Part shown: positions 4,125 through 5,893 of the stretch, piece after piece
Position numbering within the stretch: the stretch's first letter is position 1
How the letters are laid out: each line of letters begins with the position of its first letter
Origin: Escherichia phage SUT_E420
Strand: one strand, 5' to 3'
DNA length: 64,000 nucleotides
Sequence record: OQ990039
The notes under the pieces: generated by a model
What the model saw: only the letters and a program-made list of their open reading frames with translations
Databases searched by the model: none
Told to the model about the DNA's origin: nothing
Translations under genes and position numbers: made by a program

Positions 4125-4153
4125 TTGACATTTTCGCTGGGGTAGTGTAAAGT
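4125..4153 (+). promoter_or_regulatory. sigma70-type promoter (plus): -35 TTGACA, 17-bp spacer, -10 TAAAGT
   Basis: Consensus -35 and a TG dinucleotide just upstream of the -10; drives the three-gene plus-strand cassette 4216-5847. Confidence 0.55.
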
Positions 4154-4215
4154 ATATGTTATGGATGAGTGATCAAAGAGACACACATTTTCTATATACT
4201 AGGAGGTGTCAAAAT

Positions 4216-5205
4216 ATGACAGAAGAAGTAGCTAAGAGTCCTGAGACCGTCGCTAGCGTTGCAGCAGAACTGCACCGTCACGAGGAATCAGATAAGAAAA
4301 AGTGGGAGAAGGTCAGAGCCTACGAAGAAAAACATCGTGAACACGATGATGAAGAAGAAGATGACGATGATGAACATTGTCATAAATATGGAAAACATAA
4401 AATGCAAGAACCAGTAAACGTATTCACTAGTGGCTTCCCTGGCCTACTGGGTGGTTACCCAGCAAACGCAGGTGCTTTCGGTGGTGAAGGTATGGGACTA
4501 TTCGGAGCTATCCTAATCGGTGCTCTATTAACCGGCGGATTCGGTGGTTTCGGTGGATTCGGTGGACGTGGTGTAGTTGGTGAAGGTACCGCAGTTGATG
4601 CAGTACTTCAGAACCAAGATACCGCTAGTATTCTAGCAGCTATCAACACTACTCGTACAGAGGCTAACCAGGGTACTGGAGCTGTTTTAAGCGCAGTTAA
4701 CAATGGTTTTAGCCAGACAACCCAAAACCAGAGCCGTGATACTCAGTCTGTACTAACTACGATCTACGGTACAGGTGCTAATCTGTCTAATCAGATCTGC
4801 CAGGAAACTCGCAACGTTATTCAGGGTCAGTTCGATCTTTCTCGCCAGATTGATCAATCTTTCGCAGCTAACCAGATAGCTCGTGCACAAGATAAGTTTG
4901 ATTCTGCACAGATCGCTTTCCAGCAGACTTTACAAACTAATAACCAGTTTGCCGCTGTTCAGGCTCAGATGTGTGCTAACCAGAACTCTCTGGAACGTCA
5001 GATCGCTGAATGTTGCTGTGAACTTCAGACTGCGATCGCTGGTGTAACTACTGCGCGTATCCAGGATGAGTTAGACGCATGTCGCCTACGTGAAGCAATC
5101 GCTGCGGGTAGCGGTGCTAACGGTCAGGTAATTAATCAAATCGCTTTAAGTCTTGGTGCTATCACTCAGACTCTGGCTGGTCTGCAGGCTAAACTGCCGG
5201 CTTAA
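4216..5205 (+). CDS. low-complexity protein: acidic N-terminus, Gly-rich hydrophobic segment, Gln/Asn/Thr/Ala-rich C-terminal half (about 329 aa)
   Basis: Start set at ATG 4216 with AGGAGG 9 nt upstream (the track start at 4156 lacks a ribosome-binding site); EEEDDDDEH, then GLFGAILIGALLTGGFGGFGGFGG (probable membrane segment), then Q/N/S/T-rich repeats; E. coli-optimal codons. Confidence 0.5.
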   Translation: MTEEVAKSPETVASVAAELHRHEESDKKKWEKVRAYEEKHREHDDEEEDDDDEHCHKYGKHKMQEPVNVFTSGFPGLLGGYPANAGAFGGEGMGLFGAILIGALLTGGFGGFGGFGGRGVVGEGTAVDAVLQNQDTASILAAINTTRTEANQGTGAVLSAVNNGFSQTTQNQSRDTQSVLTTIYGTGANLSNQICQETRNVIQGQFDLSRQIDQSFAANQIARAQDKFDSAQIAFQQTLQTNNQFAAVQAQMCANQNSLERQIAECCCELQTAIAGVTTARIQDELDACRLREAIAAGSGANGQVINQIALSLGAITQTLAGLQAKLPA

Positions 5206-5226
5206 TATTAAGGGGAGGAGCCCATT

Positions 5227-5643
5227 ATGAGTAAATATGGTTTTGTAAATAACGGACTTAATCAAAGTATGGGCTCCCAGCAGCCCATTCCGGGTCTGGA
5301 TAACCCCTACTTACAACAGTTGCAACAGCGTTTAGCAGAAGCGCAACAGATGCAGCAACAACTCCAGCAAAACCCTGGAAGTGTGAGTCCTATGCAAATG
5401 ATGCAGCAAATGAGCGGGCAGTCGCAAATGCCTCAACAAATGCAGCAACAGGTGCCTCAGCAGCAAGTTCAGCAACAAACCCAACAACCGCAGGTTTCTG
5501 CGGAAGGACAGGCAGTACTAGCCCTTTTCGAAGACTTCGCAAAGACAGAGGATGGGAAACAGCTTGTATCACTTATGGGTAAGTTTAATAGCTTCTGCCA
5601 AAGCCAAGTTGCAAAAGCTCAAAATGGGGGTAGTAACTCCTAA
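5227..5643 (+). CDS. glutamine-rich low-complexity protein (138 aa)
   Basis: Ribosome-binding site GGGGAGG; over 30 percent Gln (QQLQQRLAEAQQMQQQLQQ...); ordered C-terminal 40 aa. Confidence 0.5.
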   Translation: MSKYGFVNNGLNQSMGSQQPIPGLDNPYLQQLQQRLAEAQQMQQQLQQNPGSVSPMQMMQQMSGQSQMPQQMQQQVPQQQVQQQTQQPQVSAEGQAVLALFEDFAKTEDGKQLVSLMGKFNSFCQSQVAKAQNGGSNS

Positions 5644-5652
5644 GGAGGAAAT

Positions 5653-5847
5653 ATGTGTTGCAGAAAATCTGTTTCGTGCTGCCCAGTGCCTGTAGCACGT
5701 TGTTGCTCTCCAGCAATGTTTACGCAAATACCGGCGTTCAATCCCTTTGCCTTTAAGCCTACTCTTATCCTGCCCCCTAGAGTAGATTTTCAGTCAAGAT
5801 TGGCCTCCCGTATGGGTGGTTGCTGTACACCGAGAGTATGGTTCTAA
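5653..5847 (+). CDS. small Cys-rich protein with four CC doublets (64 aa)
   Basis: Ribosome-binding site AAGGAGG; sequence MCCRKSVSCCPVPVARCCSP...GGCCTPRVWF; followed directly by a terminator. Confidence 0.45.
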   Translation: MCCRKSVSCCPVPVARCCSPAMFTQIPAFNPFAFKPTLILPPRVDFQSRLASRMGGCCTPRVWF

Positions 5848-5859
5848 ACCAAAAACAAA

Positions 5860-5893
5860 AGCCCCTGCCGAAAGGTAAGGGGCTTTTTCTTTT
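5860..5893 (+). terminator. rho-independent terminator
   Basis: Stem AGCCCCT/AGGGGCT with 11-nt loop followed by TTTTCTTTT; an identical copy at 6037-6070 is the contig-overlap artefact. Confidence 0.65.

Follow-up and report, generated by a model that had tools for sequence, protein, structure and literature searches.

A mobile and dispensable three-gene operon of T5-like phages whose products may act on the cell envelope

Introduction

What does a three-gene operon do that T5-like phages carry on the plus strand, in the midst of minus-strand tRNA genes? We addressed this question in a 64,000-nucleotide stretch of Escherichia phage SUT_E420 (sequence record OQ990039; hereafter the window), in which an original prediction, made from the DNA and its open reading frames (ORFs), had flagged a cassette of low-complexity proteins at positions 4125-5893. 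The flagged stretch is the T5.077-T5.078-T5.079 locus of phage T5 (NC_005859): DNA identity is 89.7% across 4100-5900, gene order, promoter, and terminator are identical, and in both phages the unit is flanked by the genes for T5.076 (Toprim) and T5.080 (SPFH). In T5, a classic model among phages, this operon has been called 'hypothetical' ever since the genome was annotated. All three genes carry the label 'hypothetical protein', and a literature search for T5.077-079 and the protein accessions found no relevant paper.

Here, we show that the operon is dispensable, that its gene order recurs in unrelated phages, and that its first gene belongs to a wider protein family. These three observations are new, the annotation as three hypothetical T5 genes being what was already known. 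We tentatively propose that T5.077-079 is a horizontally mobile 'moron'-type operon whose products form a membrane-anchored complex acting on the envelope.

Results

The operon is dispensable and recurs in unrelated phages

The cassette was found in ~223 of 445 T5-like records. Phage Tennessee keeps the promoter and leader to ~4186 and rejoins the window at ~6072, the three genes being absent; Bas32 has the cassette and Bas33 (HildyBeyeler) lacks it; and the viable laboratory mutant T5st0 (AY692264) carries a deletion corresponding to ~497-8460 of the window, cassette included. Since it is missing from T5st0, Bas33, Tennessee, and about half of the T5-like records, the operon is dispensable. 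Nine tRNA genes, the SPFH gene, and the Toprim-only 'primase' gene also fall within the T5st0 deletion (~497-8460), so that these, too, are dispensable in the laboratory. Near the same region, the Bas33 record (L048, MZ501074 66243-67064) annotates an intein-containing hypothetical protein.

Homologues of gene 1 at 36-45% identity, followed by the other two genes in the order 1-2-3, are present in several unrelated phage backbones (Table 1). T5-type cassettes thereby occupy at least five unrelated backbones and two host genera. Their G+C content (0.43-0.585) follows that of each backbone and lies 0.02-0.08 above the flanks in nine of ten loci. Because base composition tracks the backbone, the copies appear to be long-term residents and not recent imports. 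In T5-like phages, the unit has the features of a moron, namely its own promoter and terminator, presence/absence polymorphism, and a distinct base composition (G+C of 0.47 in the cassette versus 0.39 in the window). Ratios of nonsynonymous to synonymous divergence (dN/dS) among T5-like phages are 0.16-0.20 for gene 1 and 0.08-0.27 for gene 2, showing that both are under purifying selection.

ORF translations that resemble those typical of tRNA genes lie beside the cassette in the N4-like contig (L037, 4470-4730) and in a distant T5-like contig (L038, 6500-6640). Judging from these sequences, the cassette may be situated in a tRNA-rich variable region in those contigs too, as it is in T5.

Signals for expression in T5-like phages

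Every element of the self-contained plus-strand operon that had been predicted amid minus-strand tRNA genes was located (Table 1). The window contains ten tRNA genes, every one of them minus-strand, and they flank the unit on either side. The promoter was found with the spacing originally given, TTGACA-N17-TAAAGT, and its T5 counterpart is P12. Promoter-like matches are not enriched over chance in the region (5 found, 7.8 expected), and the assignment is based on the T5 annotation 'promoter P12' and on the conservation of 4106-4240, not on match count. This segment, comprising promoter and leader, is 97-100% identical in DNA to Tequintavirus and Epseptimavirus relatives. The strong ribosome-binding sites claimed for the three genes correspond to an AGGAGG or GGAGG box 7-8 nucleotides upstream of each. 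All three ORFs are present, with one correction to their coordinates: the ATG of gene 1 is at 4216 and not at 4217. Downstream, the plus-strand hairpin at ~5855-5895 and a minus-strand hairpin (6086-6116) make up a bidirectional terminator, and the T5 annotation describes the same element as an 'efficient bidirectional rho-independent terminator'. An Rfam search of the cassette gave no match.

Codon usage had been called E. coli-optimal throughout the cassette, and this applies to gene 1 only. With weights after Sharp and Li 1987, gene 1 has a codon adaptation index (CAI) of 0.457, ranking sixth among 61 ORFs, whereas genes 2 and 3 (0.243 and 0.217) are near the window median of 0.251. Over 3400-7300, the window has 100% identity to T5_ev212, SUT_E520, EC148, and MM-1, all of them Escherichia phages.

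Gene 1 encodes a putative membrane protein with an invariant cysteine triplet

The product of gene 1 has three parts: a charged extension at the N-terminus, a hydrophobic segment rich in Gly, and a long helical region rich in Gln, Asn, Thr, and Ala that carries a Cys triplet (the rod). The Gly-rich segment of the original prediction was confirmed as residues 94-117 (GLFGAILIGALLTGGFGGFGGFGG). In this family, the uncharged stretch covers 20-40 residues with a Kyte-Doolittle 19-residue mean of 1.3-1.9; in 28 of 39 members, Asp or Glu borders it N-terminally and Arg C-terminally. The strict form of the GxxxGxxxG motif is found in 29 of 39 relatives, and the corresponding pattern in the window copy is AxxxGxxxT. 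Taken together, the uncharged stretch, its flanking charges, and the glycine motif suggest a membrane-embedded, self-associating segment, and on these sequence features membrane association of gene 1 is plausible.

Charged residues make up 37% of the N-terminal extension and 13% of the rod, which contains 6 Cys. Some homologues carry His-rich runs such as HHYHHHHHEHYEEDDEDDEEEDEHEHH. Gln and Asn account for 14% and 8% of the C-terminal half. AlphaFold2 modeled gene 1 mostly as one long helix, at low confidence (predicted local distance difference test, pLDDT, of 46.7 with 14 aligned sequences and 53.7 with 39), and a Foldseek search of the PDB with the second, 39-sequence model returned nothing below E = 3.5.

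A wider family without the N-terminal extension

A profile search of 1.84 billion representative proteins (threshold E <= 1e-3) identified 178 relatives of gene 1, most of them 240-290 residues long (~250). These short-family proteins start directly at the Gly-rich hydrophobic segment; they retain the invariant CCC and lack the N-terminal extension. Motifs of their own are NFTTLSSINGLGRD, LNSFN, and LQGFN. Matches of short-family members were to PHROG 9288, 16490, and 8119, all of unknown function. The family is nearly confined to phages, with 28 IMG/VR loci and, in 185,579 bacterial and archaeal species genomes, a single 2-kb fragment of a metagenome-assembled genome. The cassette is thus all but missing from these genomes, which provide no prophage context for it. 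Backbones that carry Gly-rich/CCC proteins include T5-like, N4-like, lambdoid, Pseudomonas KPP23-like, Aeromonas, and crAss-like phages, the Aeromonas phage having one short-family gene.

Short-family genes have partners of a different kind. A ~100-residue, beta-rich protein follows the short-family gene in 23 of 27 loci, often with two or three more small proteins. No ORF resembling gene 2 or gene 3 was found at E <= 10 in 29 short-family loci, and because these loci have neither, the N-terminal extension and genes 2 and 3 strictly go together. No relation of gene 2 to the short-family partner c2 emerged from a profile-profile comparison, and Pfam and PHROG scans of partners c1, c2, c3, c5, and c24 returned only DUF7841 and one PHROG of unknown function.

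In some crAss-like phages (L013-L015, L022-L029), the short-family gene is part of a block of four to five small genes that separates the major head protein gene from the core gene after it. The block encodes the Gly-rich/CCC protein, the ~100-residue beta-rich protein, two small proteins, and a DUF7841 protein. Its absence from the reference cr118_1 (L049) identifies it as an insertion. Elsewhere in one of these loci, the portal homologue (L013 gene 3, 1208 residues) contains an insert with a LAGLIDADG-type motif (ILAGLIDTDG); from its sequence, the insert is probably an intein.

Gene 2 has conserved ends and a disposable spacer

Two conserved parts of the gene-2 product, an N-terminal helix motif (YLQQLQQRLAEAQ) and a C-terminal domain (EGQAVLALFEEFAKTEDGKQLVS..GKFNSFCQS), are separated by a variable spacer rich in Q and P; an invariant Cys lies within the ..FCQ.. 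of the C-terminal helix (alignment A4). All 116 gene-2 homologues are 101-146 residues long and none has a precomputed Pfam domain; those traced to their locus directly follow a gene-1 homologue. The product had been described as over 30 percent glutamine. Its overall content is lower, at 27.5% (38 of 138 residues), and it reaches 47% in residues 27-90. Within gene 2, this Q tract shows the lowest conservation (61-69% DNA identity) and varies in length, and in other cassettes Pro-rich or short linkers take its place while the flanking helices are conserved. Being poorly conserved, length-variable, and replaceable, the Q tract behaves as a spacer and not as a selected prion-like domain.

Gene 3 is a Cys-Cys micro-protein in a strongly conserved stretch of DNA

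The description of gene 3 as a 64-residue peptide with four CC doublets was accurate: it has 8 Cys, all in doublets, and its N-terminus is MCCRKSVSCC. Gene 3 is annotated as a coding sequence in T5, MM-1, and KPP23, and the ORF is omitted from several other annotations. In diverged cassettes, where the DNA can no longer be aligned, an ORF of 49-91 residues led by a ribosome-binding site always follows gene 2; it encodes a second CC, is rich in Pro and Phe, often contains an NPF motif, and has almost no acidic residues. The Met-Cys-Cys start is present in every cassette locus examined except the lambdoid L042 copy, which begins MSCNCGC. A scan for ATG-TGY-TGY ORFs of at least 30 residues found one after gene 2 in every other cassette locus, together with one unrelated MCC ORF elsewhere in L006; in the 29 short-family loci, the same scan found none. 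The persistence of a Cys-Cys ORF after gene 2 where cassette DNA no longer aligns argues that gene 3 is coding. In Salmonella phage GSW6 (L006, 4113-5267), whose record leaves gene 3 unannotated, the gene-3 ORF has no stop and runs for 385 codons antisense to the SPFH gene, a read-through that reflects a C-terminal frameshift or a sequencing error. We also considered gene 3 as the precursor of a ribosomally synthesized and post-translationally modified peptide or a microcin, and rejected this reading because no modifying enzyme or exporter is encoded nearby.

Together with the promoter and leader, the interior of gene 3 (5681-5815) is the most conserved DNA of the locus, with 94-100% identity across genera, while identity falls to 56-72% in the Q tract of gene 2 and in the central part of gene 1. 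In the same phage pairs, synonymous divergence is 0.04-0.15 in gene 3 versus 0.9-1.3 in gene 2. The dN/dS of gene 3 (~0.8-1.3) is based on too few changes to be informative. The RNA fold of 5640-5910 beats that of shuffled sequences (z = -3.4), in part because of the terminator. The low synonymous divergence and the islands of conservation hint at nucleotide-level constraint.

Searches for known relatives

The three products could not be assigned to a known family, as had been noted from the outset. Searches of Pfam and NCBIfam with the three proteins gave no match, and neither did PADLOC-DB at E <= 0.1. Homology to T5 proteins of known function was looked for and not found. Gene 1 matched PHROG 8119 (E = 8.4e-205, residues 1-329 on profile 1-332) and gene 2 matched PHROG 7894 (E = 1.1e-79, residues 1-138 on profile 1-139), both of unknown function; gene 3 is in no PHROG. 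Profile searches of the PDB with alignments A1, A2, and A4 returned only insignificant matches to coiled coils and to influenza hemagglutinin HA2. Families of the lysis category (Phage_holin_T, RI, RIII, Phage_lysis/Rz) in Pfam, NCBIfam, and PHROG matched none of the three proteins, and the library searches gave no signal of enzymatic or nucleic-acid-binding function in any of them.

Neighboring genes and assembly

The convergent neighbor of the operon (T5.080; 6140-7087, minus strand) is annotated 'lipoprotein' and encodes an SPFH/Band-7 membrane protein (Pfam E = 2e-17). Its CAI of 0.461 is as high as that of gene 1. Since this gene is kept in phages without the cassette, it appears to be independent of it. 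On the other side, the T5.076 homologue (3431-4000, minus strand; 189 residues) is annotated 'DNA primase'. A Toprim domain is its only match, and it is much shorter than the primase profiles matched.

Just downstream of the operon, AAGCCCGCGCTC at 6086-6100 (GCGC at 6092) matches the major single-chain interruption annotated in T5 (the 32.6% nick). The segment 5911-6087 is an assembly artifact consisting of 100 N and an exact 77-bp duplicate of the preceding contig end; public T5-like genomes are continuous through this gap. The scaffold of the window has 12 gaps of exactly 100 N; at 10 of them, the 77 bp before the N run recur unchanged right after it, indicating contig ends of a k=77 assembly graph that were joined untrimmed. 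The 32.6% nick site is ~180 nucleotides from a contig break, and the nick may have contributed to this break.

Table 1. Features of the operon in the window, gaps in the window, and loci of the cassette in other phages
Feature	Position	Strand	Remarks
Promoter TTGACA-N17-TAAAGT	4125-4153	+	sigma-70-type, 10/12 positions match; T5 promoter P12 (NC_005859)
Conserved 5' leader	4154-4215	+	ends in ribosome-binding site TAGGAGG; inside the 4106-4240 conservation island
Gene 1, T5.077 homologue, 329 residues	4216-5205	+	ORF; PHROG 8119
Gly-rich hydrophobic, glycine-zipper-like segment GLFGAILIGALLTGGFGGFGGFGG	codons 4495-4566	+	residues 94-117
Invariant Cys266-Cys267-Cys268	codons 5011-5019	+	invariant in alignments A1 and A2; at least 90% conserved in the 39-sequence superfamily alignment A6
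Gene 2, T5.078 homologue, 138 residues	5227-5643	+	PHROG 7894
Gene 3, T5.079 homologue, 64 residues	5653-5847	+	basic, Pro/Cys-rich micro-protein; Met-Cys-Cys start, FNPF motif
Intrinsic terminator hairpin and U-run	~5855-5895	+	GCCCCUGCC-GAAA-GGUAAGGGGC, G+C-rich; from RNA fold
Other N runs	27525, 29064, 38551, 42797, 43455, 44192, 44824, 45694, 46690, 47262, 54082		
Cassette locus, N4-like contig			with virion RNA polymerase (vRNAP) domains
Cassette loci, distant T5-like contigs			gene order 1-2-3
Cassette loci, Pseudomonas aeruginosa siphophages KPP23 and RSP and a related contig			Mu-like portal in the related contig
Cassette locus, lambdoid contig (L042 copy)			between the Q antiterminator and a complete holin-lysozyme-Rz set
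Cassette locus, further 17-kb contig			gene order 1-2-3

Discussion

A possible membrane-anchored complex

The anatomy of the three genes, their co-inheritance, and their mobility lead us to the following proposal. Gene 1 would most likely sit in the inner membrane, held there by its glycine-zipper-like, Gly-rich segment and probably assembled into a homo-oligomer, and would bear a ~200-residue helical rod with the Cys triplet, to which T5-type copies add the charged N-terminal extension. Gene 2 would consist of two conserved helical ends joined by a disposable Q/P-rich spacer. Neither gene 2 nor gene 3 has a signal peptide. Because the two occur only where gene 1 has the extension, the extension might be their docking site on the cytoplasmic side of the membrane, and the low-charge, Cys-bearing rod would then be on the opposite, periplasmic side. 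We prefer this N-in/C-out topology because of the much higher charge of the extension, the lack of export signals in genes 2 and 3, and their co-occurrence with the extension, and consider it at best slightly more probable than the reverse. The conserved cysteines could link subunits via metal or disulfide bonds. Presumably made early in infection, the complex would alter the envelope of the infected or lysogenic cell to the advantage of the phage.

Since virulent and temperate phages alike carry the unit in the manner of a moron, its specific role might be exclusion of, or protection against, competing phages or envelope-directed attack; we regard this guess as doubtful. A bolder extension of the proposal, which we judge unlikely, is that the Gly-rich/CCC rod protein represents an unrecognized, widespread class of accessory device, of which the T5 version, with its spacer protein and micro-protein, forms a new trans-envelope structure. 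The Cys-Cys N-terminus of gene 3 would be linked to the complex or the membrane through an acyl group, metal, or disulfide, and the whole could be, for example, a superinfection-exclusion or envelope-remodeling machine unrelated to spanins, holins, or known exclusion proteins.

Several observations weigh against a membrane-anchored complex of this kind. By the positive-inside rule, the acidic residues before the hydrophobic segment and the Arg after it, together with the nearly charge-free short N-tails of the wider family, favor N-out/C-in. The hydrophobic core of several homologues measures only 13-16 residues between its bounding charges, and because it is so short the segment may be peripheral or re-entrant rather than spanning. 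Heptad periodicity of the rod is not significant versus shuffles (z = 1.0), and the AlphaFold2 confidence is poor. A simple scan outside T5-like phages, covering the N4-like and lambdoid copies, found no good sigma-70 promoter before the cassette; 'self-promoted' is thus shown for T5-like phages only. The only Tequintavirus dataset of RNA sequencing and proteomics that we found is that of Bas33, a phage without the cassette (PMC13250531). Finally, PADLOC gave no match, and no link specific to exclusion emerged.

Alternative roles

The features that make the operon moron-like would also suit a role in defense or counter-defense, either as an anti-defense complex directed against membrane-associated immunity or as an abortive-infection or exclusion effector with a non-envelope mechanism. 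The cassette is polymorphic in a variable accessory region, has moved across unrelated phages and host genera, takes the classical moron position between Q and the lysis genes in the lambdoid phage, and has a promoter that would allow expression from a prophage. However, no PADLOC model matched, the three proteins bear no enzymatic or nucleic-acid-binding signature, and their low-complexity composition is atypical for known anti-defense proteins; we therefore regard such a role as unlikely. Lysis control is slightly less probable still. Here, gene 1 would be a bitopic protein resembling holin T or an i-spanin, with a large periplasmic Cys domain, and genes 2 and 3, as partners or regulators of it, would tune the timing of lysis or the disruption of the envelope. 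By analogy, the architecture recalls Rz, which combines an N-terminal anchor with a helical, Cys-bearing ectodomain and is paired with a small Pro-rich Cys partner, or the T4 trio T, RI, and RIII. The cassette adjoins a holin gene in the lambdoid contig, and in one locus (L003) the short-family gene is three genes upstream of a VanY-type endolysin candidate. On the other hand, gene 3 has no signal peptide or lipobox, neither holin nor Phage_lysis families of Pfam were matched, a full holin-lysozyme-Rz (PF03245) set is already present on the other strand of the lambdoid contig, the T5 operon is in the tRNA region behind a sigma-70-type promoter and away from the lysis genes, and T5st0, Bas33, and Tennessee propagate as lytic phages without it.

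The conserved cysteines kept in all three proteins raise the further, improbable alternative of a thiol or metal module, in which they and the acidic/His-rich N-terminus bind or move Zn, Cu, Ni, or Fe-S, or in which the N-terminal Cys-Cys carries acyl groups. Runs such as those quoted for some gene-1 homologues would fit metal binding, and the lack of export signals would place the cysteines of genes 2 and 3 in the reducing cytoplasm; against this, the His-rich runs are not conserved and do not occur in the N4-like and distant T5-like copies, the searches revealed no metal-binding fold or motif of a known kind, and no partner enzyme is encoded. It is quite improbable that gene 3 is not, or not only, protein-coding and that 5681-5815 is an RNA or other nucleotide-level element. 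Low synonymous divergence with a dN/dS near one, near-identity across genera, the folding signal, and the omission of the ORF from several annotations point in that direction, but Rfam had no match, the terminator hairpin supplies part of the folding signal, and the ribosome-binding-site-led, Pro/Phe-rich Cys-Cys ORF, with its second CC, follows gene 2 in every diverged cassette. A cytoplasmic, prion-like condensate, about which the original prediction had speculated, would have gene 2 and the Q/N-rich half of gene 1 phase-separate to organize infection. Their glutamine and asparagine content invites this idea; it rests on a Q tract that is the fastest-evolving and most length-variable part of the operon and that is replaced in other cassettes with the flanking helices preserved, and the Q/N-rich region of gene 1 has sharply conserved motifs and the CCC, as expected of a defined structure and not of a composition-driven function. 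We consider the condensate highly improbable. Least credible of all is an accessory role in the virion or its morphogenesis, for instance that of a head or ejection protein. Ejection and tape-measure proteins contain hydrophobic and long-helix segments, of which the Gly-rich segment and long helix of gene 1 are loosely reminiscent, and in 11 IMG/VR loci the family gene comes after portal, c8, and major head protein (phrog_11589). However, the crAss-like copy belongs to an inserted block missing from cr118_1, T5st0 is viable without the cassette, and the T5 operon is apart from the structural genes, in the tRNA region. In addition, ORF072-074 of KPP23 were not among the proteins detected by mass spectrometry of its virion (PMC4031330).

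Three co-travelling genes, two of them under purifying selection, with Cys-Cys-Cys and Met-Cys-Cys signatures, offer a handle on phage 'dark matter', and phage pairs with and without the cassette exist (T5 and T5st0, Bas32 and Bas33). An exclusion, envelope-remodeling, or counter-defense device would be relevant to phage cocktails, since many therapeutic Salmonella and E. coli T5-like phages carry the cassette, and gene 3 would represent a new type of small, cysteine-marked phage micro-protein. If phenotypically silent, the unit would be just one more accessory operon.

Comparison with known systems

Gene 1 contains the hexapeptide GLFGAI, with which the fusion peptide of influenza HA2 starts, and, as in HA2, a long helix comes after a hydrophobic segment rich in Gly; HA2 chains predominate among the matches of the PDB profile searches. 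Unlike HA2, gene 1 has no C-terminal anchor, and the match is driven by composition. At E values of 0.05-0.9 it is not significant, and we rejected a relationship with HA2 as coincidence or at most a loose analogy.

The lambda Rz/Rz1 pair is a parallel in layout, with a bitopic-looking gene 1 whose long helical, Cys-bearing region is encoded next to a small Pro-rich, Cys-containing partner. Nevertheless, gene 3 and all its diverged homologues lack a hydrophobic h-region and a lipobox (L-x-x-C). The operon is not part of the lysis cassette, occurs alongside a genuine Rz (PF03245) in a lambdoid phage, includes a third, Q-rich component, and is dispensable in lytic T5 variants. Compared with an i-spanin, gene 1 does have a hydrophobic segment, but it comes after a 93-residue charged extension and precedes a rod without significant heptads. 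We rejected a spanin identity because of the absent lipobox and the coexistence with Rz. In the lysis-inhibition trio of T4 (holin T, RI, and RIII), a single-anchor membrane protein has a large Cys-containing C-terminal domain. The operon likewise comprises three small proteins around a protein with what may be a single anchor, but neither sequences nor profiles show similarity, the signal-anchor-release (SAR)-type signal of RI is absent from genes 2 and 3, and nothing ties the cassette to lysis.

Envelope morons, among them lambda bor and lom, HK97 gp15, and T5 llp, are single small membrane proteins or lipoproteins, whereas the cassette encodes a co-evolving set of three proteins that have no lipobox and no similarity to them. 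What the operon shares with these morons is its genetic behavior: a promoter and terminator of its own in T5-like phages, polymorphic presence, a base composition that differs from its surroundings, and, in the lambdoid genome, a position of the stx/bor type.

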